Assembly: GCA_032124015.1 (NCBI GenBank)
Contig: JAQBEH010000022.1
Location: forward strand, 10,585-74,584
Direction of reading: 5' to 3'
DNA length: 64,000 nucleotides
From: Acidobacteriota bacterium
GTDB lineage: Bacteria > Acidobacteriota > Polarisedimenticolia > Polarisedimenticolales > DASRJG01
The notes below the pieces were generated by a model. That model had not been told where the DNA came from. It did not search any database and worked only from the letters and a program-made list of their open reading frames with translations. The translations under genes and the position numbers were made by a program. This document shows, one piece after another, positions 23,434 to 36,214 of the stretch (position 1 is its first letter; each line of letters starts with the position of its first letter).

Positions 23434-25533
23434 ATGCGCCGATGGATACCCGCAATCATGACGCTCGCTGTGCTGGGGATTTCCGTCCTACGGGCGGCCG
23501 ACACCGAAACCCCGGTTGCTCATCCGGACGCCGAAGAGCGCGTCGAGGTCACGGCCACCAAGTTCGAGGACGACCCTGACAAGATCCCGCAGTCGATGAC
23601 CGTCGTTTCGGGCCAGGATCTCAGGGATCGTGGGGCGATGGATTTCCGCTCGGCCCTGGCGCTCGTGGCCGGAGTCGACATCGCCCCGGGCGGAGACGGC
23701 GGGCCGGCCTCGGCGGTCCCCGAAATGTGGGGCTTCAGGGAGCAGGACGCGTACCTGTTGATCGTCGACGGCGTCCCTTGGGGCGGCGTGTTCAACCCGC
23801 AGGTGTCGACCGTGCGCCTGAACGATATCGAGAGGATCGAGATCCTGCGCGGGGCGGCGCCGGTCATGTACGGGACCACCTCGTTCGTCGGAGTGATCCA
23901 GGTGATCCGCTACCGCCCCGGGTCCGGCGCGCCCGGCATCCAGGCGGCCGCGGGCTCGTACGGTAGTGCGGCGCTCGCGTCGTCGTTCGACCTCGGAACG
24001 TGGGCCGGCTTCGGCTCCCGTCTCACGCTCGACGCCGAGCAGCGGGATTACCCCGACCCGCGCACCGACTTCGAGCGCGGGCATGTTCTCTGGCGCAACT
24101 TCCGCCCGCTCGGTGGCGGTGGTGAAGTCTATTTCAACCTCGAAGGCACGTGGCTCAACCAGTCCCCGTCGAGCCCGGTCCCACGCACGGGAACCGTCCT
24201 CGCGCCGAACGTCCCGCAGAACGCCAATTACAACCCCGGCGGTGCCGAAATCGATCCCCGCCGGAACACGGTGAACGGCGGCTTCACCATCCCGAAGTCC
24301 TACGGCATCTGGAGCGGGCTCGTGTCCTACGCGCGTTCGTCCACCGACGCCCTGCGCGGATTCATCACCGATCCGACCGGGCCGGTCTTCCCCGCAATCG
24401 GCGAGCGTTCGACTACAACCCTCGACGAGGTGTAGGCCGACGCCCACATCGAGCTCACGAACGTCGCGAAGACTCAAATTGTGGTCGGTGTGGATTCCCA
24501 GTACGGCAAAGGCGACCTAGACGGTGGCGATTTCGACTACACGATCAACGCCGACGGCTCGGACCCGCCCGACGGCAACTCGATTCCGCTGAACATCGAC
24601 GCGAATATCATCGACACTCGAAATTTCGGAGGGCTGTACGGATTCGTCGCCTGGACGCCCGACTGGAGGTGGCGGCTCGAGGGGGGGCTGCGCCTCAATC
24701 TCACCGACGAGAGCCGCGACACCACGGTCCAGGACTTCGTGCCGGCGACGTTAGACCAGGGAACCGACCACGCCAGCGAGTCGAGGCCGAGCGGAAGCGC
24801 GGGTGTGACGTTCACCGCGTGGCAACGCGGGGCCGACAATGTCCGGATCTTCGCCGACTACCGGAAGACGTACAAGCCCGCCGCCGTGGATTTCGGCCTG
24901 AACGCCGAAGCCAGAATCCTAGACCCCGAGACCTCGGAGAGCATCGAGCTGGGCGTGCGCACGACGCTCCTCGAGCAGAGACTAGAGCTTGAGATGTCGG
25001 TCTTCAACATGGAGCTCCAAAATCTCGTGGTCCCCACGACCGTGAATGGCCTGCCCGCGCTCGAAAACGCCGGCGCCGAGCAGTTCAAGGGGATCGAGCT
25101 CGAAGCGACCGGGCGCCTGCCGCACGACATCGTGGTGCGGGCGGCGGGGAGCTACCACGACGCAACGTTCCTCGATTACGTTCGGGACTTCGACGGCGTG
25201 CCGACCCAGCTCGAAGGGAAACGCCAAGAGATGACCCCGATCTGGCTGGCCGGGGCCGGCATCGTCTACGCGCCTGCCAAGGGGTTCATCGCCCACGCGG
25301 AGGCGTCGTTCACCGGCTCGCGCTATCTCAACAAACGGAACACGGCGCTCGCCGCCCAGTTCACGACGTGGGGGATGGGCGTCGGCTGGCGCGGGGACCG
25401 CTTCACGATCCGGCTCGACGGCACGAATCTCGGCGACGAGCGCCCTCCGGTTTCCGAGAGCGAGCTCGCCGATGCGTCCTACTACCTTCTCGAGGCCCGC
25501 CGGATCTGGCTGTCGTTCGACTGGTTGTTCTGA
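23434..25533 (+). pseudogene. TonB-dependent receptor interrupted by one in-frame TAG (24433..24435)
   Basis: Signal peptide and plug domain (IPQSMTVVSGQDL, IERIEILRGAAPVMYG) are in ORF 23434..24435. The barrel, ending ..SFDWLF, is in ORF 24481..25533. Both ORFs are in the same frame, and the intervening codons are open apart from the TAG. Confidence 0.8.
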
Positions 25534-25562
25534 AAAAGTGGAACTCCCCTACTTCTCTAGAA
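25533..25562. repeat. Degenerate REP-like element between convergent TBDR and OMP genes
   Basis: The sequence is AAAAAGTGGAACTCCCCTACTTCTCTAGAA. Its reverse complement contains GTAGGGGAGTTCC. Confidence 0.4.
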
Positions 25563-27134
25563 CCTGTAAATCACGCCCGCATAGACCTGGTCCTGATTCT
25601 CGAAGGTGCCGGAATCACGTTCCAGTGAGAGCAGGATGGACCAGCGCCGGCCTATCGCGGCATCCATGTCGAGCCCGTACCAACTCAGGTGGCGATCCAG
25701 AGCGGGGTCCACGTTCAGTTCGTCGAGGCGACCCCCGGCAAATTCGAAATGAACGCCGGAGGAGACGTTCACACCAATGGATAGTGCGTAGAGGTCACCA
25801 CTGCTCTCCAGGTTCGAAAAGTGGGTTCCCCGCAAGCGGACTCCGAAGTTTGCGCGGGTGAAGCGCCCAGCGCCGACGGTCAACGAATAGGAGTTCGCTG
25901 GTCCCAGCACGCCGCCGTCGATCTGGCGCCCCTCGATCCCGATGTCCACGTGGCGACCGATGCGGAACGACGCGCCGCCCCAGGCCCCTTGCCGGGTCGA
26001 TCTGTCGAAGATGACGAGCGGATCCACGTAATCCCAGTATTGGTAGACGTTTTCGCGGCTGTCGTATCCAACGTTCAGATCCAGCCATTTCGCGGCGTGG
26101 ACCCTCAACGAGATGAAGGTCCCGGTGAGTTCGATCGGATCAAGGCCGGCGACGTCGACCTTCCAGCCGCTGTTGAAGTCCACCTCTTGGTTCGCATACA
26201 TCGACAGCCACTTCGAGTCGTAGATCGCCTGGAGGAAGAGATACTGTCGGCTGACGACGCTCGTGGCGTACGCGCCGACGAGGCCGGTGGTGAACGCCCA
26301 GCGTGACGTCGCTCCGGGGCGGTTGTGAACGTTGAAGTAACCCGCAAACTCCCTGACGTCCGTCGAGAAGCTCAAATCGTTGAGGTCCGGTTGCAAGCCC
26401 ACTAGGACACCGCCGCCCCAGCGTGGACCGTCGTGGGCGAACAGCACGCCGTCGAAAATCTCGACACCGTCGAGCATGGGGGCATACTGGCGTCCGAACG
26501 TCAGGCGCTCTTCCGGTGTGAAGCGGTACGAGACCGAGGCGCTGTACGTGCGCACCCTCTGCGTCGCTTGGTCTCCCCCCGAGAAAGTCGAATACGACGC
26601 TCGGCGCGCGCGGATATTGACGTCGAGATCCACCGGCGAGCCATTCAGTCCGTAGCCGGCGAGGCGCACGTTTGTCGCGGGTTCGCTGTACCCCCTGTCG
26701 TTTCCGCTGCGATCGATGATGCCGAGGTAACCGAGTCCGACAGTGCCATGGAGGCCGGCTCCCCGGGAGGCCGCCTTGGGAGACCCGGCCAAAGGCGGAG
26801 CGGCCGCAACCGGCGGGGTGCTCGGCGAATAACGCACCGTGTCGCCGACCCTGAGAGTCGTGGTCGACTCGACGATCGCGCAGGATACCCGGTGGCTCGT
26901 GACGTAGGTGACCTTGAGCGTCGCCACGTCGCTACCGTCGCGCACCGCCGTGAGCTCGTCGCCTTCCTGTAGTCCTTCGTCCTGGCCGGCGTCGACGTAG
27001 ACCGAAGTCGCGGCCACGTAGGTGATGTGCGCGATCGCCGGCTCAGGCTGAGCCGGCGGCGGCTCCGCGGCGAAGGCGAGCGCGGCCGAGACCAACGACG
27101 AGACGACGACAAGGCGTCGTGAGACGCGACTCAC
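25557..27134 (-). CDS. Outer-membrane beta-barrel protein with N-terminal soluble domain (porin component candidate)
   Basis: GTG 27134 overlaps the upstream stop (GTGA). Signal peptide RRLVVVSSLVSAALAFAAEP, a long stretch of alternating beta-strand pattern, and the aromatic terminus ..YAGVIYRF are present. Confidence 0.7.
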   Translation of the reverse strand: MSRVSRRLVVVSSLVSAALAFAAEPPPAQPEPAIAHITYVAATSVYVDAGQDEGLQEGDELTAVRDGSDVATLKVTYVTSHRVSCAIVESTTTLRVGDTVRYSPSTPPVAAAPPLAGSPKAASRGAGLHGTVGLGYLGIIDRSGNDRGYSEPATNVRLAGYGLNGSPVDLDVNIRARRASYSTFSGGDQATQRVRTYSASVSYRFTPEERLTFGRQYAPMLDGVEIFDGVLFAHDGPRWGGGVLVGLQPDLNDLSFSTDVREFAGYFNVHNRPGATSRWAFTTGLVGAYATSVVSRQYLFLQAIYDSKWLSMYANQEVDFNSGWKVDVAGLDPIELTGTFISLRVHAAKWLDLNVGYDSRENVYQYWDYVDPLVIFDRSTRQGAWGGASFRIGRHVDIGIEGRQIDGGVLGPANSYSLTVGAGRFTRANFGVRLRGTHFSNLESSGDLYALSIGVNVSSGVHFEFAGGRLDELNVDPALDRHLSWYGLDMDAAIGRRWSILLSLERDSGTFENQDQVYAGVIYRF

Positions 27135-27760
27135 GGCCTTCCCCCATAGAACGACACGGGATAGTGACACTCGACGCAATTCCGCGAGTACCCTCCCGCC
27201 ACGTGATTCGGGTTCCGGGTCGCGTAGTAGTCCTGCAGGTGACATGCGACGCACTCGGTCGGGGTGTTGACGTACCTCCGATTCGTATGCAGCACATGGC
27301 AGGCCTCACAATCGGCCGCGGCGTGCGCACCCACCAGGGGGAAGCGCGTCAACTGGTGGGCTCGGCCCATGTGCGCGCGGTCGATGAAGCTGCGCGGCGT
27401 GTGGCAGCGCGCACAGTCGTCGCCGAGCTCGCCGCGATGGATGTCCTGGTGGCACGACGTACAACTGCTGCCGACTTCTTTGAAGACGAGGTTGAGGTGG
27501 CAGGCGCGGCACGCGGTTTGAACGTGGGCTCCTTCCAGAGGAAACCGAAATCGCCCGTGATCGAACGATCGGGCGATCTTGGCCGGCTTCCAGCCTTCGG
27601 GTCCATGGCAGGTCGCGCACGTGTCCTTGAGAGGCCCATGCGGATTGTCGGCGTTCCCTACGTCGACGGCGACGCCGGCCTCGTCGGCGGCACGAACGAC
27701 GGCGCCCGCCCCAAGAAAAAAGAGGGCCGCCACTGCGAGCGCCTTCGTCATGTTCGTCAT
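27131..27760 (-). CDS. Heptahaem c-type cytochrome, periplasmic
   Basis: Seven CXXCH motifs: CATCH, CRACH, CTSCH, CARCH, CEACH, CVACH, CVECH. A signal peptide (MTKALAVAALFFLGAGAVVRA) is present. The ATG lies 5 nt after the upstream stop. Confidence 0.85.
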   Translation of the reverse strand: MTNMTKALAVAALFFLGAGAVVRAADEAGVAVDVGNADNPHGPLKDTCATCHGPEGWKPAKIARSFDHGRFRFPLEGAHVQTACRACHLNLVFKEVGSSCTSCHQDIHRGELGDDCARCHTPRSFIDRAHMGRAHQLTRFPLVGAHAAADCEACHVLHTNRRYVNTPTECVACHLQDYYATRNPNHVAGGYSRNCVECHYPVSFYGGRP

Positions 27761-27765
27761 GTCCG

Positions 27766-29835
27766 TCAGTCCGAAGATAGGGGCCGCGTGAGCGCGGGTC
27801 CACCGGGGATATGCTTTCCGTGACAGTCCTCGCAAGTGTGAGGCACTGGGCGATAGACGACGATCGCCCGCCCTTCCTTAGGTCGAGGCGCCGCATGGCA
27901 CTTCGCGCAGGGGACCTTCGCATGAGCGCCCTTCAGGGAGAACGTCGCGTCGACGTCGTGATCGAACTTCGACGCCGGTCGGAACGCAACCTCCCCGTGG
28001 CACGAGGCGCACTGACCGGCCTCGCCGCGCCGTGCAAATTGGTCGCCGTGAGGCGTTTCGTGGCACGCTTCGCAGTTCGTGCCTTTGGTCGTGAATACCA
28101 TCGGGGGCGCAGGCCCGTGGGCGAGCACCAGGGACGAGCGAGCCGGCCCAGGCACCTGTTTCGACTCGACGTGACAGGCATCGCACGAAATCGCCCGATG
28201 CGCCCCAACGAGCGCGTAGTTGAAGTAGAGATGCGAGGCCACATCCACGATCACCGGCCGGAAGGCGGCGAAGTTGTGACACGCTTCGCAGTTGTTCTTT
28301 TTGGGGCGCAACCCCGTCGGGCCGAACCGGCCGTCGTGAGCGTCGAAGTGGCACGAGGCGCACTCCGTCTCCCTGACGACGAGCAGGACGCCAGCGCGGC
28401 CGAGTTTATCGACCGGAGGCAGGGGAGGCAGTCCCTTGCGAGCCGGCCCGTGGCACGCGGCGCATTCGATCTTCGCGTGGCGTCCCTCGATCGGGAATTT
28501 CAGCTTCGCGTGCTCGGCCACGCCGAACAGGCTCGGCTTCCAACCGGCGACGTTGTGGCAGGGCTCGCAGGCCGCGCCTCCCGGCCGCGAGGCGAGCTGG
28601 CCGCCATGGTCGTCCCGATGGCAGTCGAGACAGCGCGAATACTTCGGCCGGAGAAGCACCCCCGCCGATCCCAAGGACCCCGCCGCGACGCCAGGAGGAT
28701 TCTTGAGGTGACACTTCTCGCAGGCGACGGCACGGTGACGGCCCTCGAGCGGATACGCCGATTTCTGGTGCTGCTCCACCGTGTACGCGTTGACGCGAAA
28801 GCCCTCGACCCGATGGCAGGCCGCGCAATCGACGACGCGGCCCTCAATCGTCGCCCGTCCGGCGTGGGCATCCTTGTGACACGACCCGCACGATGAGAAG
28901 ACAGGTTTCTTCCCCCACGCCTTGGCCGGATCGTGGCACTGCGCGCACTTGAGCGCGGTGTGTTTTCCGCGCAACGGGTAGCGGGTCTTGTCGTGCTCGA
29001 AGCTCGCCGCCGTCGCCGCCGTCACGGCGAGAAAGGACTCGGTTACGTGGCACTTCGCGCAGCCAGGCCCGAGTCGGCCGGCGTGAGGGTCGACGTGGCA
29101 GGGTGTGCACTCGGCGTGGGGGATCGGCTTGTACAACGGCTTCGGTCGGCCCTCCGCGTCCTTCGGGAGGTCGAGGTTCGCCACCATGTGGCACTTCTCG
29201 CACTTGACCGGAATGTGCTTTCCCGTCAGCGGGTAGCTCGTCTTGCCGTGGTCGAAATTGGAAGGCGGCTTCCACGCTACAACGCTGTGGCATGATTGGC
29301 ATTCTGGCCCGAGCGATCCGCGGTGGATGTCTTCGTGGCACGACTTGCACTCGCGCTCGAGCCCGATCCATCCTTCCGAAGGGTTCTTCCGCTTGGACAG
29401 TTTTGCGGCGGGCGAGACCACGTACTTCGCCGTGTGACAGTCTCGGCACTTGGTCGTCTGGTGCTTGCCCTCGAGCGGCCACCCAGCTGTCTTGTGGTCG
29501 AACTTATCCGCGCTTCCCTCCGGCCAAGCCACCATCTCGAAGTCGCGTCCCGCGTGGTCCGGATGACAGGTCGCGCACTCTTCGCCCTTCTTGGTCGCGT
29601 GCAATCCGCGGTCATGCTGGACCAGCCAACCGATGTCCTTGTGGCATTCGACGCACCGGTCGTCCATGGAGCCTTTCGCCTTGCCGTGGCAGGCGAAACA
29701 CTGAAGGGGCGTGTCGATCTCCTGATGGGGGTGAGCAAGCGGGCCGGGGGACATTTGGGCGTAGGCCGGCCCCGCGAGCGAGCCGACGGCGAGCGCGATG
29801 GCGAAGGCGCTCGATCTGACCGTCAATGGAACCAC
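27766..29835 (-). CDS. Multihaem c-type cytochrome with 23 CXXCH motifs
   Basis: I counted 23 CXXCH motifs in 689 aa, arranged as repeated triads (..PLxGxH-x4-CxxCH .. CxxCHxDxHxG .. CxxCH). GTG 29835 overlaps the upstream gene end. The signal peptide SSAFAIALAVGSLAGPAYA has no lipobox Cys. Confidence 0.88.
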   Translation of the reverse strand: MVPLTVRSSAFAIALAVGSLAGPAYAQMSPGPLAHPHQEIDTPLQCFACHGKAKGSMDDRCVECHKDIGWLVQHDRGLHATKKGEECATCHPDHAGRDFEMVAWPEGSADKFDHKTAGWPLEGKHQTTKCRDCHTAKYVVSPAAKLSKRKNPSEGWIGLERECKSCHEDIHRGSLGPECQSCHSVVAWKPPSNFDHGKTSYPLTGKHIPVKCEKCHMVANLDLPKDAEGRPKPLYKPIPHAECTPCHVDPHAGRLGPGCAKCHVTESFLAVTAATAASFEHDKTRYPLRGKHTALKCAQCHDPAKAWGKKPVFSSCGSCHKDAHAGRATIEGRVVDCAACHRVEGFRVNAYTVEQHQKSAYPLEGRHRAVACEKCHLKNPPGVAAGSLGSAGVLLRPKYSRCLDCHRDDHGGQLASRPGGAACEPCHNVAGWKPSLFGVAEHAKLKFPIEGRHAKIECAACHGPARKGLPPLPPVDKLGRAGVLLVVRETECASCHFDAHDGRFGPTGLRPKKNNCEACHNFAAFRPVIVDVASHLYFNYALVGAHRAISCDACHVESKQVPGPARSSLVLAHGPAPPMVFTTKGTNCEACHETPHGDQFARRGEAGQCASCHGEVAFRPASKFDHDVDATFSLKGAHAKVPCAKCHAAPRPKEGRAIVVYRPVPHTCEDCHGKHIPGGPALTRPLSSD

Positions 29836-30812
29836 GTGACACCGAGAACGATCGCGGTCCCCACGTGAAGCACGACGGCGACGAGCGCAACGATGGCCAT
29901 GGGCTTGTGCGCGACGTGCCAATAGCGGAGGAGTCGGTGCGTAACGTCGAGCATACGAGCTTGCTGCATCAGCGCGATCTCGCTCCGCATGAGACCGTGC
30001 AGTCTGGCGCGCGCCGCGCGATCGACCCGTCGTTCGGCGGTCGAAGCGCCTTTCCAACTCCACTGCAATTGTCGGGAGGTCTTCCACCGCCGCGCGTCGT
30101 CCGCGATCATGACCGCGAAAGCTTTCAGCGCGTTCATGTCGGGTGAGATCGTGGGAGACGCTCCAGAGAGCAGGGCGTGTTCGAGGAGCTCGCCGTCGAT
30201 CCCTGTGGCGTCGACGATTTGTTGAAGCACAGCCCGACGCTGGGTCTCGAGCTGGTCGCGCGTCAGCTCGACACCGTTTCTGCTACGCGGGATGCGCACG
30301 TAGATGTACCGTCCGACGACTCCGCTCAGCCACGCGACCATCATCGCGCCGTAGCCGAGCCCGATGAGGCCGGAGAAGTGCCACGCCGCGTGGAGCGTCG
30401 CGAGAAACGGAACGCAGAGGCCTGCTATCACGTGGACGTCGAGCCAGATCGCACGTGATGCGCCGAACGCAAGCCACCGGAATTTCTTTTGAAGCGGGTA
30501 GATCCACAAGAAGCTGAACAGGGCAAAGGCGGCGATTCCAGCGGCTTGTCCGATGAGGCCTGACGGTCGGAACCACGGATGCAGCGGGCTCCGCAAACGA
30601 TCGACCGCGGGCAACACGAAATACGGCAGGCCAGCAAGATTGGCCGAGACGACCAAGCCCAGGACGACGAGGAGGAAGCCCAGCCCGACGCGCGACCTCC
30701 TGGACGCCGCAATCTCCGCCTTCTGGGGGCGCTTGGCCGGCCTAGGCGCCGGTGCCGGCTCCGGCGCGCGCCGCTTTGCAGCGTGGTTCTCGAGCACGGC
30801 TTGTGAGCTCAT
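29823..30812 (-). CDS. Integral membrane protein with two H-x13-H helices (dihaem b-type cytochrome candidate)
   Basis: 329 aa with about 5 TM helices. One helix reads HVIAGLCVPFLATLH and another HKPMAIVALVAVVLH. A loop of about 110 aa precedes the last helix. Confidence 0.6.
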   Translation of the reverse strand: MSSQAVLENHAAKRRAPEPAPAPRPAKRPQKAEIAASRRSRVGLGFLLVVLGLVVSANLAGLPYFVLPAVDRLRSPLHPWFRPSGLIGQAAGIAAFALFSFLWIYPLQKKFRWLAFGASRAIWLDVHVIAGLCVPFLATLHAAWHFSGLIGLGYGAMMVAWLSGVVGRYIYVRIPRSRNGVELTRDQLETQRRAVLQQIVDATGIDGELLEHALLSGASPTISPDMNALKAFAVMIADDARRWKTSRQLQWSWKGASTAERRVDRAARARLHGLMRSEIALMQQARMLDVTHRLLRYWHVAHKPMAIVALVAVVLHVGTAIVLGVTWFH

Positions 30813-31068
30813 GGTTTCCCCGCCGGGAACCGAGCGAAAATGGTGCCAGCAAGGGACGACCCACCCGACGCCCGCGGATCCTTCCGTGTCCTTCGCGACG
30901 GCCCTGCGACGTAATCCTGGTTTCAGATTTGGTAATAGCGCGAGGACCTGATGGAGTGAAGCCCGAAGAGGAACGACGGGGGCGTGGCCCAGGGGTTGCT
31001 TGGTTCCTGGCGGGCACTCAATTCCCAGACAGAGCGCAGCAGTTCGGCTCGGAGAACGTAATACTTAC

Positions 31069-32364
31069 ATGCTGACCACCGTACTTTTCCTGACGACGAC
31101 CCTTCTTGTTTGCCTCGTGCACGTGCGCAAGCACGCGAAGCTCGAGCGAAGATCGCTCGAGTTGCGTGAGGAGAATGAAAAGGCCGGGCTCAACGAACCG
31201 TTCTCGCTTCATCCCCTCATCGACGAGAACTTATGTATCGGCTGCGGCTCCTGCGTTACGGCCTGCCCCGAGCAGGCGGTCCTTGGCCTCATCCAGGGGA
31301 AAGCGGTTCTTGTCGAGGCCTCGCAATGCATCGGCCACGGAGCCTGCAAGACCGCGTGCCCCACGAGGGCGATCCAACTCGTGTTCGGTACGGAAGAGCG
31401 TGGCGTCGACATCCCCAACGTCCAGTCGAACTTCGAGACGAACGTCCCGGGCATCTTCATCGCGGGTGAGCTCGGCGGCATGGGGCTGATCGGCAACGCC
31501 GTCGAGCAGGGGCGGCAGGCGATTGAGTCGATTCGCAAGCTGTCCGGGATGGGCCAAGGGAACCGGTTCGACGTCGTCATCGTCGGGGCCGGCCCGAGCG
31601 GATTCTCGGCATCTCTTGCGGCGCTGCACCACAAGCTGCGCGTCTTGACGATCGAGCAGGACACCCTCGGCGGGACCATCGCCCACTTCCCGCGCGGGAA
31701 GATCGTCATGACGCGACCCATGGAACTTCCCATCGTCGGGAAGGTGAGATTCTCCGAGACGACGAAGGAGAAGATCATCGACTTTTGGAAGAAGGTCGAG
31801 CGCGAAACCGGCGTCAAGATCAACTACAACGAGCGCCTGGAGACCATCGCCGTCGACGGGAACGGTTTCACCGTCCGCACTACGCGAGGTGAATACCGTG
31901 CCCGAGCCATACTTCTGGCCATTGGCCGCCGGGGCACCCCCCGCAAGCTCGGCGTCCCCGGCGAGGAACTCGACAAGGTCGTCTACCGGTTGATCGACCC
32001 CGAGCAGTATCGAGGTCAGCATGTGCTTGTCGTGGGCGGCGGCGACAGCGCCCTCGAGGCGGCGGCCGCCATAGCGGCGCAGCCAGGCTCGACCGTCACC
32101 CTCTCCTACCGAGAGAAAGCGTTCGTCCGGGCCAAGGTAACGAACCGCAAAAAGGTCGAGACGGCTCTGTTCGAAAAACGCCTGCGCGTGCTGTACGAGT
32201 CGAAAGTGCAGGTGGTGCACAAGAAATCGGTAGCTGTCGAGCAGAACGGCCAGGTGATCCTCGTCCCGAACGATGCGGTGATCGTCTGCGCGGGCGGCCT
32301 CCTCCCGACTCCGTTCCTCAAGGAAATTGGCATCGAGGTCGAAACGAAGCACGGCACCGCCTAG
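31069..32364 (+). CDS. Membrane-anchored 2x[Fe-S] ferredoxin-domain / FAD-NAD(P) oxidoreductase (thioredoxin-reductase-like)
   Basis: N-terminal TM helix MLTTVLFLTTTLLVCLVHV followed by RKHAK. Cluster motifs CIGCGSCVTACP and CIGHGACKTACP. Dinucleotide folds VVIVGAGPSG and VLVVGGGDSALE. Confidence 0.8.
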   Translation: MLTTVLFLTTTLLVCLVHVRKHAKLERRSLELREENEKAGLNEPFSLHPLIDENLCIGCGSCVTACPEQAVLGLIQGKAVLVEASQCIGHGACKTACPTRAIQLVFGTEERGVDIPNVQSNFETNVPGIFIAGELGGMGLIGNAVEQGRQAIESIRKLSGMGQGNRFDVVIVGAGPSGFSASLAALHHKLRVLTIEQDTLGGTIAHFPRGKIVMTRPMELPIVGKVRFSETTKEKIIDFWKKVERETGVKINYNERLETIAVDGNGFTVRTTRGEYRARAILLAIGRRGTPRKLGVPGEELDKVVYRLIDPEQYRGQHVLVVGGGDSALEAAAAIAAQPGSTVTLSYREKAFVRAKVTNRKKVETALFEKRLRVLYESKVQVVHKKSVAVEQNGQVILVPNDAVIVCAGGLLPTPFLKEIGIEVETKHGTA

Positions 32365-32404: not shown

Positions 32405-34639
32405 TCAGTTCGTTTCCGGTGCTCCGTTGTCGATCCAACTCGTGATGATGGCCGGCTCCCCGGACAGCAGGTACTGTCGCATGGTCCCACCCGTCTGAGT
32501 CGTCGACCGGACCTTCGCACGATTGGCGAAGACCTGTGCGTAGGTCAGCAGGGTTGGGCTCTGGCCCCCGGTGGTGTGGCAGCCGCTCTGCGTGCAGCCG
32601 AGCTTGGTTCCGTTAGGCTGATTCGGCCGCGCGGTGATCATCGCCTTCGTCGTGTTCAGGTAGGTCACACGCGTTGTGACCGTCACCGAATCCTGCGCGC
32701 TCCCCTGGGGGCTGCCGTTGTCGATGACGGTGAGCGTGAAGGTGTAAGTCGCCGTTGCGTTCACCGGCGCTACAAAGCTCGGTGTCGCGGTGTTCGCACC
32801 CGACAGCGTCACCGTCGCTCCGGCGGTCTGGCTCCACTGATACGAGCTGATCGATCCATCGGGATCCGACGAGGCGCCGCCGTTGAGTAGGACCGTGACG
32901 CCCGGGTCGAGGTTGATCTGGTCGGGGCCGGCGTTCGCGAGCGGAGGCTGATTCGTCGCGACACTCACGGTGATGACGACCGTCGATGACCCGGTGGCTC
33001 CATCGTTGTCGGTGACGGTCAGAGCCGCCGTGTAGCTGCCGGCCGATGCATAGGTGTGCGTCGGGTTCTGAACGGTCGACGTGCCCCCGTCACCGAACGC
33101 CCACGCGTACGAGGCGATCGTGCCGTCCGTATCGGTGCCCGTCCCCGTGAACGTCACGAGCAACGGGGCGGTACCGGACGTCGGCGTGGCCGACGCCGAG
33201 GCGCTGGGCGGCAGGTTGCTGACGGCGGAGATGGCGACCGTCGACGAGCCGGTCGTGCCGCCGTTGTCGGTGACCGTCAGGGTGGCCGTGTAGTTGCCCG
33301 GCGACGCGAAGGTGTGCGAGGGGCTCTGCGCGCTCGAGGTCCCGCCGTCGCCGAAGGTCCACGCGTAGGAGGCGATGGTCCCGTCGGAGTCCGTCCCTGA
33401 ACCGGTAAACGCCACGACGAGCGGGGCTTTGCCGGAGGTCGGCGCGGCCGTGGCACTCGCCGTCGGAGGCTGGTTCCCGGCGGAACTCGCGGAAATGGCG
33501 ACCGACGATGAGCCCGTGGCTCCGTTATTGTCGGTGACCGTGAGCGTTGCGTTGTAGTTCCCCGCGGTCACATACGTGTGCGAGGGGCTGGCCACGGTGG
33601 ACGTGCCGCCGTCGCCGAAGGTCCAGGCATAAGACGCGATTGTTCCGTCGGAGTCGGACCCGGAGCCGGTGAAGACCACGGCCAGAGGCGCCAACCCGGA
33701 CGCGGGCGTTGCGGAGGCGCTTGCGATCGGAGGCTGGTTCGCAACGGCCGAGATCTGGACCGTTGCATTTCCCGTCGCGCCGTTGTTGTCGGTGACCGTG
33801 AGCGTCGCGTTGTAGTTGCCGGCCGTCTGATACGTGTGCGAGGGGTTCCTCGTGTTCGATGTGCCGCCGTCGCCGAAGGTCCAGGCGTAGGACGCGATCG
33901 TCCCATCGGAGTCCGTCCCGTTCCCGGTGAACGCCACCACGAGCGGCGCCTTCCCACTGGTGGGTGTGGCCGAAGCGCTCGCGGTCGGGGGCTGATTGGA
34001 CCCGGCCGTGATCGCGACCGTCGTCGAGCCTGTAGCGCCACCGTTATCGGTCACCGTGAGCGTGGCCGTGAAGTTCCCGCTGGTCTGATACGTGTGCGTG
34101 GGGTTCTGTTGCGTCGACGCGCCGCCGTCTCCGAACATCCAGGCGTAAGACGCGATCGTCCCGTTGGAATCGGTCCCGCTTCCCGTGAACGTCACGAGGA
34201 GCGGCGCCAATCCCGAGATCGGAGTCGCCGAAGCTGTCGCGGTCGGGGGCGGGTTTGCCGGAACGCTGACCGCGACCTCCACGGCCGCCTGACTCGTCGC
34301 GCCGGCGTTATCCGTGACTTCGAGCATGGCGATGAAGGTGCCAGCCGTGGCGTACAGGTGGGTCGGGTTGGCCTCCGACGAGGTGGCGCCGTCACCGAAC
34401 GTCCACGCGTAGGCGGCGATCGATCCGTCGGGGTCGGTCGCCGAGCCGGCGAAGGCCACGGTCAGCGGGGCCGGCCCCGAGGTCGGCGTAGCCGTCGCCA
34501 GGGTCACAGGCGCTTGGTTCGCTCTGTCGAGCGTGACGTCCTTACAGGCTAGAAAGGTCGCGAGAGCAAGAATGACGCCTGCGGCGAGCACGCGAGCGAA
34601 CGGCCACCCGTCCGCCCGGGATCCTCTCGTCTCTTTCAT
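32405..34639 (-). CDS. Lipoprotein with six tandem PKD domains, one ANAGPDQ-type PKD-like domain and a C-terminal CX4CH cytochrome-like domain
   Basis: ATG 34639 follows GGAGGA. Lipobox LATFLAC. Repeats of the type APLxVxFTGxGTDxDGTIASYAWTFGDGGTS..TLTVTDNxGATG. The tail contains CTQSGCH and a downstream GGTM. Confidence 0.85.
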   Translation of the reverse strand: MKETRGSRADGWPFARVLAAGVILALATFLACKDVTLDRANQAPVTLATATPTSGPAPLTVAFAGSATDPDGSIAAYAWTFGDGATSSEANPTHLYATAGTFIAMLEVTDNAGATSQAAVEVAVSVPANPPPTATASATPISGLAPLLVTFTGSGTDSNGTIASYAWMFGDGGASTQQNPTHTYQTSGNFTATLTVTDNGGATGSTTVAITAGSNQPPTASASATPTSGKAPLVVAFTGNGTDSDGTIASYAWTFGDGGTSNTRNPSHTYQTAGNYNATLTVTDNNGATGNATVQISAVANQPPIASASATPASGLAPLAVVFTGSGSDSDGTIASYAWTFGDGGTSTVASPSHTYVTAGNYNATLTVTDNNGATGSSSVAISASSAGNQPPTASATAAPTSGKAPLVVAFTGSGTDSDGTIASYAWTFGDGGTSSAQSPSHTFASPGNYTATLTVTDNGGTTGSSTVAISAVSNLPPSASASATPTSGTAPLLVTFTGTGTDTDGTIASYAWAFGDGGTSTVQNPTHTYASAGSYTAALTVTDNDGATGSSTVVITVSVATNQPPLANAGPDQINLDPGVTVLLNGGASSDPDGSISSYQWSQTAGATVTLSGANTATPSFVAPVNATATYTFTLTVIDNGSPQGSAQDSVTVTTRVTYLNTTKAMITARPNQPNGTKLGCTQSGCHTTGGQSPTLLTYAQVFANRAKVRSTTQTGGTMRQYLLSGEPAIITSWIDNGAPETN
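32947..34516 (-). repeat. Tandem coding repeats of about 260 bp (PKD units)
   Basis: Six consecutive units of 86-88 aa share long identical peptide runs (IASYAWTFGDGGTS, ATLTVTDN). Confidence 0.8.
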
Positions 34640-34759
34640 CCGTCCATCCTCCGGCGCCCGTAGCCGACCGTAGGAGAACAGAGCAAGCGCAGTGCCACGA
34701 CGTTGGTCGGACACTTCGAGTCATGCCGTTTTACGATTTCGTGGCGAATTCCGCCTACA

Positions 34760-36214
<1,455 letters not shown>

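Follow-up and report, generated by a model that had tools for sequence, protein, structure and literature searches.

A conserved module of flavoprotein, membrane protein, cytochrome and barrel genes as a probable trans-envelope electron conduit

Do a histidine-bearing membrane protein, two multihaem cytochromes and a predicted outer-membrane barrel, encoded side by side, form a route by which electrons cross the whole cell envelope, and if so, what feeds it? We asked this of a locus in an Acidobacteriota genome assembly (GCA_032124015.1), within a 64,000-nucleotide stretch of contig JAQBEH010000022.1 (positions 10,585 to 74,584 of the forward strand) that we refer to as the window; coordinates are those of this stretch unless a locus is named. 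An initial annotation, made from the DNA letters, had proposed that four coupled genes (here A, B, C and D) encode a conduit of non-canonical composition, and that a neighbouring Fe-S flavoprotein gene (F) might complete it. To our knowledge, experimental work on porin-cytochrome conduits is confined to a few Proteobacteria and to Geobacter, and all the conduits characterised there are fed by the quinone pool. We found that the real unit is a five-gene module of A, B, C, D and F that is conserved across phyla, and we consider it highly probable that this module is a trans-envelope electron conduit. Its closest published counterparts, by motifs and published description and not by sequence homology, are the porin-cytochrome c (PCC) types PCC3 and PCC4 of He et al. 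2017 (PMC5566968).

Layout and conservation of the five genes

Genes A to D lie on the minus strand, as A (29823-30812; 329 residues), B (27766-29835; 689 residues from a GTG start, or 686), C (27131-27760; 209 residues) and D (25557-27134; 525 residues, ending ...VIYRF). F (31069-32364; 431 residues) lies on the plus strand, divergent from A. The 256 bp between them (30813-31068, assigned to neither strand) are presumed, from the gene arrangement alone, to hold a bidirectional promoter region. The junctions are tight: A and B overlap by 13 nucleotides when B is read from the GTG at 29835, B and C are separated by a 5-nucleotide gap (27761-27765), and C and D share a 4-nucleotide GTGA overlap (27131-27134). 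Our check of the open reading frames (ORFs) returned the same coordinates and junctions for these four genes as the initial annotation. The start of B is ambiguous, as public gene calls on identical contigs give either the 689-residue product or a 686-residue product from TTG 29826, which would overlap the A stop by 4 nucleotides. The products of A, C, D and F are called identically on 41-54 public contigs. Plus-strand ORFs that overlap A to D in this region of 65% GC are not conserved features.

We surveyed conservation from both ends of the locus. The A-side survey covered the best 80 of 257 species genomes with a relative of A, and its ratios refer to loci with enough flanking sequence; the D-side survey covered 80 metagenome contigs, recovered with a pattern built from 12 D sequences. 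The best 80 genomes were mostly metagenome-assembled genomes (MAGs) of Gemmatimonadota, with Acidobacteriota, Eisenbacteria and Krumholzibacteriota also represented. F adjoins A in 58 of 59 loci, either divergently as in the window (32 loci), between A and B (24) or after D (2), and D lies downstream of A in 43 of 45. Seen from the other end, a multihaem ORF ends at the start of D in 63 of 64 metagenome loci; where at least 8.5 kb of upstream sequence was available, A was present in 15/19 loci and F in 14/19. Both the barrel-cytochrome linkage and the membership of the flavoprotein, which the initial annotation had put forward, hold up in these counts. Distant homologues of D (31-35% identity) sit in same-strand clusters with A-like and F-like genes and two or three multihaem cytochromes, and the five families occur together at 21-50% identity in Gemmatimonadota, Acidobacteriota, Eisenbacteria, Krumholzibacteriota and Bacteroidota. 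Clustering of the flanking ORFs of 80 loci gave no further partner in more than 9 of the 80; CcmE-like genes were found in 8.

This pattern bears directly on whether the locus is a chance juxtaposition or an annotation artefact, with a barrel unrelated to the cytochromes. The window is rich in GC, long spurious ORFs are common in such DNA, and no promoter or terminator consensus backs an operon. However, the junctions overlap and the five families co-occur across five phyla even at low identity. We find this explanation barely credible, and regard it as refuted by the synteny.

A finds its best match in a MAG that carries the label Actinomycetes; Acidobacteriota come next, and Gemmatimonadota after them. 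In this nearest relative from the genome collection (L006, 9833-16777), A is 66-68% identical to that of the window, and B, C and D are in many frame-shifted pieces. The locus represents either a long-read assembly error or a decaying copy, and the 'Actinomycetes' label is doubtful for an outer-membrane system.

Relatives of the module also occur on plasmids. Plasmid pEMTOL02 of the cultured bacterium Emticicia oligotrophica DSM 17448 (Bacteroidota) has, at 81299-89995, the gene order ccsA-A-F-B-C-D, with identities to the window of 25% for A, 47% for F, 31% for B (which has 23 haems) and 21% for D. Its C has 40 haems, and its D aligns with that of the window over the full length in hhalign (99% probability). 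The gene annotated as ccsA (cytochrome c biogenesis) encodes 1,028 residues and lies directly before the module (L086, 2198-5284), while the gene after D encodes a GW-domain protein. Conduit and cytochrome c maturation gene may thus travel together on this plasmid. On conjugative plasmids of sphingomonads, an A-type protein (hhalign probability 97%) follows a reductase of the ferredoxin-NADP+ reductase (FNR)/NADPH oxidase (NOX) type, with FAD_binding_6, NAD_binding_1 and 2Fe-2S (Fer2) domains, and precedes a 7-haem cytochrome; there is no porin gene. One such three-gene set, on plasmid pSLPG of Sphingobium sp. SYK-6 (L087, 2333-5690), encodes an A-type membrane protein of 242 residues. This set is near-identical on at least 17 plasmids of Sphingobium and other sphingomonads, mostly conjugative, and its neighbours encode a heavy-metal-responsive regulator and a copper-binding four-helix-bundle protein.

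The proteins from cytoplasm to cell surface

F combines an N-terminal transmembrane segment (residues 1-19, followed by the basic stretch RKHAKLERR), a ferredoxin domain of the 2x[4Fe-4S] type and an FAD/NAD(P)H domain of the thioredoxin reductase (TrxR)/YpdA type, with matches to Pfam Pyr_redox_3 (1e-39) and to Fer4 families. The nearest PDB entries to the flavin domain are YpdA/Bdr (7a76/7a7b), followed by TrxR and TrxR-type FNR (3ab1/5ygq). F scores 156 bits against a YpdA equivalog cut-off of 340, and hence is a relative of YpdA and not an orthologue. The flavin domain has GxGxxG motifs at residues 173 and 323 and lacks a CxxC or other Cys pair, which, together with the TrxR-type FNR relatives, argues that F is not a disulfide reductase. 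The Fe-S motifs of F, CIGCGSCVTACP ... CIGHGACKTACP, are encoded at 31234-31362 on the plus strand, and the second carries His in place of its second Cys. This C-x2-H-x2-C-x3-CP arrangement is kept in 74 of 75 orthologues. Clusters with His for Cys are typical of electron hand-over to a partner protein. F is also the most conserved protein of the module, as its identity to the Emticicia counterpart illustrates.

A has five hydrophobic segments, taken as transmembrane helices TM1 to TM5, and its Lys- and Arg-rich loops fall on alternate sides in accordance with the positive-inside rule. The Lys/Arg-rich parts are the N-terminus, the 108-121 loop and a helical insert of 140 residues (167-306), all of which should therefore face the cytoplasm. 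An AlphaFold2 model of A is all-helical (predicted local distance difference test, pLDDT, 77), with helices that agree with the five segments. The two H-x13-H helices noted at the outset pair H127 with H141 and H302 with H316, and all four His are invariant among 45 homologues. TM3 (residues 120-141; 30390-30455, minus strand) reads W123-x3-H127-x13-H141, and TM5 (residues 296-323; 29844-29927, minus strand) reads W298-x3-H302-x13-H316, with both Trp also invariant. The remaining invariant positions are H78, H299, S163, G164 and G167, the last three of which form an SGxxG motif on TM4 (S163-G164-V-V-G167). Given the predicted topology, H127 and H302 would lie towards the cytoplasm, and H141 and H316 towards the periplasm, which is the geometry of a two-haem transmembrane wire. 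A is, on its sequence, a putative di-haem b transmembrane electron carrier.

We considered whether A is a member of a known haem-b family and dropped this idea. A matched no Pfam or NCBIfam family, and neither a profile search nor Foldseek found a relative in the PDB. Comparison by hhalign gave probabilities of 0.1% with E. coli MsrQ and 0.2% with E. coli YodB (cytochrome b561 / Ni_hydr_CYTB, PF01292). The only hints were faint ones from Pfam: Ferric_reduct (PF01794) matched 4 of 45 homologues, at best with E 0.0068, and not A itself, and Ni_hydr_CYTB matched two distant relatives below threshold (19 bits against a cut-off of 30). The family of A is large, with 2,758 representatives at 50% identity in an exhaustive profile search, 1,597 of them at E <= 1e-10. 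Of the 8,000 candidates scored, 7,331 are from Bacteroidota, among them Emticicia, Aquirufa and Saprospiraceae, and every member that we looked up is annotated as 'hypothetical protein'. Two apparent fusions of A with F, P0317 (863 residues) and P0305, both of which match A and Fer4/Pyr_redox_3, were considered as Rosetta-stone evidence and set aside. They are gene calls merged across frameshifts, because Arg/Pro/Gly-rich out-of-frame stretches lie between their parts.

The cytochromes contain exactly the 23 (B) and 7 (C) CXXCH motifs first counted, and every Cys lies inside a motif (46 of 46 in B, 14 of 14 in C). Both have a hydrophobic N-terminus with an AXA-type site and no lipobox, as read by eye, and like D they thus carry export signals. 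B spends 28.8 residues per haem and is built of a trihaem repeat of about 85 residues; five stretches of it match Pfam Cytochrome_C7 (E 8e-29). The mature start of B, Q-[IML]-S-P-G, is kept in orthologues. Among 43 loci, B has 23 haem motifs in 34 and 20 in six, and all 23 motif columns align among the window, Gemmatimonadota and Emticicia, the last at 31% identity. No sequence relative of B was found in the PDB. Hoover et al. and Edwards et al. took constant length to indicate a periplasm-spanning role for the 21-27-haem cytochrome of PCC3, and the constant length of B fits such a role. We propose that B is a secreted c7-type chain that acts as a periplasm-spanning wire.

C behaves differently from B in the survey, in that its orthologues beside D carry 10-68 haem motifs, with a median of 22. 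The whole of window C aligns with haems 1-7 of these proteins in 47 of 48 cases, at 39-57% identity, and on this alignment window C is the bare 7-haem core of the barrel-associated cytochrome. Close relatives also have a short C (201 and 274 residues), which points to a lineage trait rather than truncation. The initial annotation had listed haem numbers among the traits that set the locus apart; this part falls, as the count of the second cytochrome is not fixed and ranges from 7 to 68. C has a weak match to Pfam Cytochrome_C7, neither B nor C reaches an NCBIfam cut-off for the MtrA/DmsE, HmcA, Ext or c7 families, and a weak match to TIGR04257 (nanowire_3heme) was seen in the B/C cytochromes. 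The largest orthologues of C, with 68, 58, 58 and 55 CXXCH motifs (L035, 13489-19275; L073, 12946-17544; L083, 14320-18729; L056, 14320-18603), are single ORFs of 1,400-1,900 residues from Eisenbacteria and Gemmatimonadaceae MAGs, and are among the largest haem counts reported. A 2024 study described hitherto undescribed many-haem cytochromes in MAGs of Saprospiraceae and other wastewater bacteria, the largest with 112 haem-binding motifs.

D has an N-terminal hydrophobic segment with an AXA-type site and no lipobox Cys, as read by eye. The AlphaFold2 model (pLDDT 82.8) has a beta domain at residues 33-102 (26829-27038) and about 22 beta-strands over residues 128-524, in line with the barrel and N-terminal soluble domain first proposed. 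D belongs to no ordinary porin or usher family by Pfam, NCBIfam or Foldseek, and has no Pfam or NCBIfam match at all at E <= 0.1. Among 45 members of its family, the N-terminal domain matches FlgT_C in 16 and OMP_b-brl is matched in 3; none matches MtrB/PioB (PF11854) at 0.01, and MtrB is absent from the top 50 Foldseek matches. Foldseek returned only generic barrels (the ushers FimD/PapC, AlgE and Occ porins), with TM-scores of 0.35-0.43 and about 10% identity. We rejected the reading of D as an usher, since it departs from ushers in its number of strands, its domains and its gene context. In five loci (L042, L045, L046, L060 and L068), C and D have been duplicated together, so that a second cytochrome (12-16 haems) and a second barrel follow the first C-D pair. 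The presence of these second pairs implies that C and D are one sub-unit, and it suggests two exit ports on a single A-F-B set.

The relation of C to D also bears on a second explanation, in which A and F reduce B and C within the periplasm, either as a capacitor or for soluble substrates (chelated metals, metalloids or oxidants entering through D), and D is a plain channel. Several observations fit it: porin-less sets occur on many sphingomonad plasmids beside metal-resistance genes and are also listed by He et al. (PMC5566968), the locus encodes no lipoprotein or secretion system, window C has 7 haems only, and some loci are flanked by copper-related genes. Yet a multihaem gene abuts D, with translational coupling, at nearly every locus in the D-side survey, and such near-constant coupling together with joint duplication is expected of a cytochrome-in-barrel complex and not of a general porin. 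Extensions of C up to 68 haems are likewise a poor fit to a periplasm that B already spans. We therefore consider a purely periplasmic role unlikely, and prefer a conduit that reaches the cell surface.

Proposed path and direction of electron flow

We favour, with somewhat better than even confidence, a full NAD(P)H-driven outward chain of all five components. F would sit on the cytoplasmic face, held by its one-helix anchor, where its FAD would oxidise NAD(P)H and pass electrons to the two Fe-S clusters. A would hold two b-haems stacked between TM3 and TM5, and electrons would move from the H127/H302 haem to the H141/H316 haem, reaching the periplasm without an obligatory quinone step. The Geobacter protein GSU1996 has 12 haems and is roughly 12 nm long. 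By analogy with it, the c7-like chain of B, with 23 haems, would measure about 20 nm and could bridge the periplasm. C, in or under the roughly 22-strand barrel D, would then deliver electrons to the cell surface, in parallel with MtrA in MtrB and MtoA in MtoB. The C-terminal extensions of most relatives of C, with 3-61 extra haems, would project outward, and the window would represent the minimal form. Candidate acceptors are Fe(III) or Mn(IV) minerals, humics, and O2 giving superoxide. What we observe is the gene content, the motifs, the fold of D, the export signals and the conservation of five genes; from these we infer cofactor binding by A, protein-protein contacts, the direction of flow and the acceptor.

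We favour outward flow because NAD(P)H is a strong reductant, whereas inward flow would be uphill in redox terms and would run against the membrane potential. The opposite direction, electron uptake, would have Fe(II) or Mn(II) oxidised outside and electrons passing from D/C through B and A to the quinone pool, with F either an accessory or a site of reverse flow that makes NAD(P)H. Delivery of inward electrons to NAD(P)+ is uphill, strongly so from Fe(II), and is opposed by the membrane potential. The near-obligate pairing of A with an NAD(P)H flavoprotein in our survey also speaks against uptake. So do the sphingomonad plasmids, which swap in another NAD(P)H reductase; a different reductase beside an A-type protein is independent support for NAD(P)H input from the cytoplasm. 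On the other side, uptake is the model of He et al. 2017 for PCC3 and PCC4, which have the same type of inner-membrane protein and occur in iron oxidisers (PMC5566968). Conduits of the Mto/Mtr type are considered reversible, and in Sideroxydans CL21 cells oxidising iron, one copy of PCC3 showed a rise of its inner-membrane gene. In Sideroxydans ES-1, however, PCC3 was down-regulated on Fe(II), and the hosts of the module belong to heterotroph-dominated phyla; carbon was fixed by 3 of 36 PCC-bearing MAGs in one survey (PMC13264449). On balance, uptake seems to us an improbable main function, and outward flow driven by NAD(P)H the better account.

Several points weigh against this account and lower our confidence in it. 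Both the module and its closest type, PCC3, are known from genes alone, and the down-regulation of PCC3 on Fe(II) in ES-1 gives no positive word on function. Haem binding by A is proposed from its motifs alone: A has no significant similarity to known haem-b proteins, and the best E-value in a Foldseek search with its model was 0.57. A may also contain a quinone site. How the long extensions of C would reach the outside is not explained by a lipobox, a type II secretion gene or any other route. The intergenic region between A and F does not match the sigma-70 consensus, and a promoter and terminator scan gave results at the level of shuffled sequence. Finally, loci L100 and L103 combine a 23-haem B and a 9-haem C with D, and neither A nor F is present in the 5-6 kb available upstream; in these cases the inner-membrane part may lie elsewhere or be missing.

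The genes around the module were recorded separately. A TonB-dependent receptor gene, convergent with D (23434-25533, plus strand), is split by an in-frame TAG at 24433-24435 into an ORF with the Plug domain (23434-24435) and an ORF with the barrel (24481-25533), which points to a pseudogene, an error in the sequence or stop-codon read-through. Beside F, a minus-strand gene (32405-34714) encodes a 769-residue protein with seven PKD domains, whose C-terminal stretch of about 90 residues has no Pfam match and contains C-T-Q-S-G-C-H, a CX4CH-like motif; this gene lies beside F in close relatives (L089 and L091-L094) and not in distant ones. A Glu/Leu/Phe/Val-type dehydrogenase, an enzyme that makes NAD(P)H, is encoded at 34760-36214 on the minus strand, and again directly downstream of D in L004 (9690-10997); this proximity could be chance. 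Rfam and tRNA scans of the 64-kb window were empty.

The module is common in uncultured bacteria of soil and water, and its carriers are abundant aerobic heterotrophs of the Gemmatimonadota, Bacteroidota (Saprospiraceae, Aquirufa) and Acidobacteriota. If the proposed path is right, it represents a new route of electrons through the inner membrane, and it extends extracellular electron transfer to the dominant heterotrophs of soil, freshwater and wastewater. These bacteria, not so far considered electroactive, might then have candidate machinery for extracellular reduction of iron, manganese or humics, or for superoxide production. The giant cytochromes of 40-68 haems would be explained as variable outward extensions of a 7-haem core, and the PCC3 clusters debated in iron-oxidiser research would gain a testable function. 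With the plasmid copy in Emticicia oligotrophica DSM 17448, a cultured strain, the question is open to direct test.

Comparison with known systems

With MtrCAB, MtoAB and PioAB the module shares its logic, namely a periplasmic multihaem cytochrome in an outer-membrane barrel, encoded by adjacent genes, and the C-D pair resembles MtoAB and PioAB in having no separate surface cytochrome. The families differ. D stands outside MtrB_PioB, with about 22 strands against 26; C scores 16.2 bits against the MtrA/DmsE cut-off of 192.2 (TIGR03508) and B has no match, with 7 and 23 haems instead of ten. There is no lipoprotein of the MtrC kind, and no quinol dehydrogenase of the CymA/NapC type serves as input at the inner membrane. 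With Geobacter (Pcc/Ext, GSU1996 and GSU2210) the module shares c7-like trihaem units, present in both B and C, and the Ext clusters, too, include Fe-S or inner-membrane components within their region (NCBIfam name ExtO). The module matches no NCBIfam Ext, Oma, Omb or Omc model above noise, and it differs from Pcc/Ext in having no lipoprotein cytochrome and another inner-membrane step.

At the inner membrane, there is an analogy with NOX and ferric reductases (FRD, PF01794) and with MsrQ-Fre, which likewise have two His pairs 13 residues apart on two transmembrane helices and a cytoplasmic NAD(P)H flavoprotein, so that A and F resemble a 'split NOX'. A has no significant sequence or profile similarity to these proteins, five transmembrane helices against six, and the cytoplasmic 167-306 insert. 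The acceptor of A would be a multihaem cytochrome, whereas theirs are O2, Fe(III) or MsrP. We offer only tentatively, as a possibility we hold below even odds, the broader idea that the module is an envelope-spanning bacterial counterpart of NADPH oxidase/ferric reductase, independent of quinone, with a new di-haem b family at its base and 30-90 c-haems leading to the exterior.

The cluster thus lies outside the Mtr/Mto/Pio and Geobacter Pcc/Ext families and, judged by its motifs, matches the PCC3/PCC4 class. He et al. 2017 gave Slit_0867-0870 of Sideroxydans lithotrophicus ES-1 and a cluster of Leptothrix cholodnii SP-6 as PCC3 examples, and described the PCC3 and PCC4 inner-membrane protein as about 300 residues long, with five transmembrane helices, SGxxG on TM4 and Wx3Hx13H on TM3 and TM5 (PMC5566968). 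A shows all of these features. The periplasmic cytochrome of PCC3 has 21-27 haems (median 21), with about 26-27 residues per haem, and is built of repeats; B is comparable in haem number and spacing, within the gene order A-B-C-D; its trihaem repeat is about 85 residues long against about 60-66. The second cytochrome of PCC3 has 10-85 haems (median 34), a range in which the orthologues of C fall and window C, with 7, does not, and the 22 strands predicted for the L. cholodnii porin agree with those of D. PCC4 has Fe-S and other redox genes beside the membrane protein. The membrane proteins of PCC3, PCC4 and other such clusters are not mutually similar by BLAST (PMC5566968), and our tblastn search of plasmids returned only the Emticicia and porin-less sphingomonad sets, with no proteobacterial PCC3. 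In its published description PCC3 lacks an NAD(P)H flavoprotein, comes mostly from Proteobacteria and is modelled to feed the quinone pool in Fe(II) oxidation, its proposed function. In contrast, the FNR-like F is almost obligatory in the present module, and the hosts belong to other phyla. A model in which NAD(P)H drives electrons outward, possibly independently of quinone, departs from the published PCC3 hypothesis.

A second precedent comes from a 2026 survey of MAGs from the Sterkfontein ghost-rock, whose PCC 'group 1' has a large multihaem cytochrome by a porin of about 20 strands; in 7 of 11 cases a gene for ferredoxin-NADP+ reductase stands close by, which was called a 'potential functional coupling' (PMC13264449). 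One of its genomes, SAR286, is our locus L054, with the order A-F-cyt20-cyt16-D. That survey is descriptive; it did not recognise the His-motif membrane protein, and it includes no cross-phylum survey or analysis of fixed and variable cytochromes (PMC13264449). With these precedents, the initial annotation stands in part: its reading of the locus as a conduit survives the genomic tests and is supported in substance, whereas the uniqueness of the composition was overstated. New relative to both precedents are the definition of a five-gene module with counts, the near-obligate F with its His-bearing motif, the pairing of a fixed B with a variable C, the breadth of the A family, and a plasmid-borne example in a cultured bacterium.

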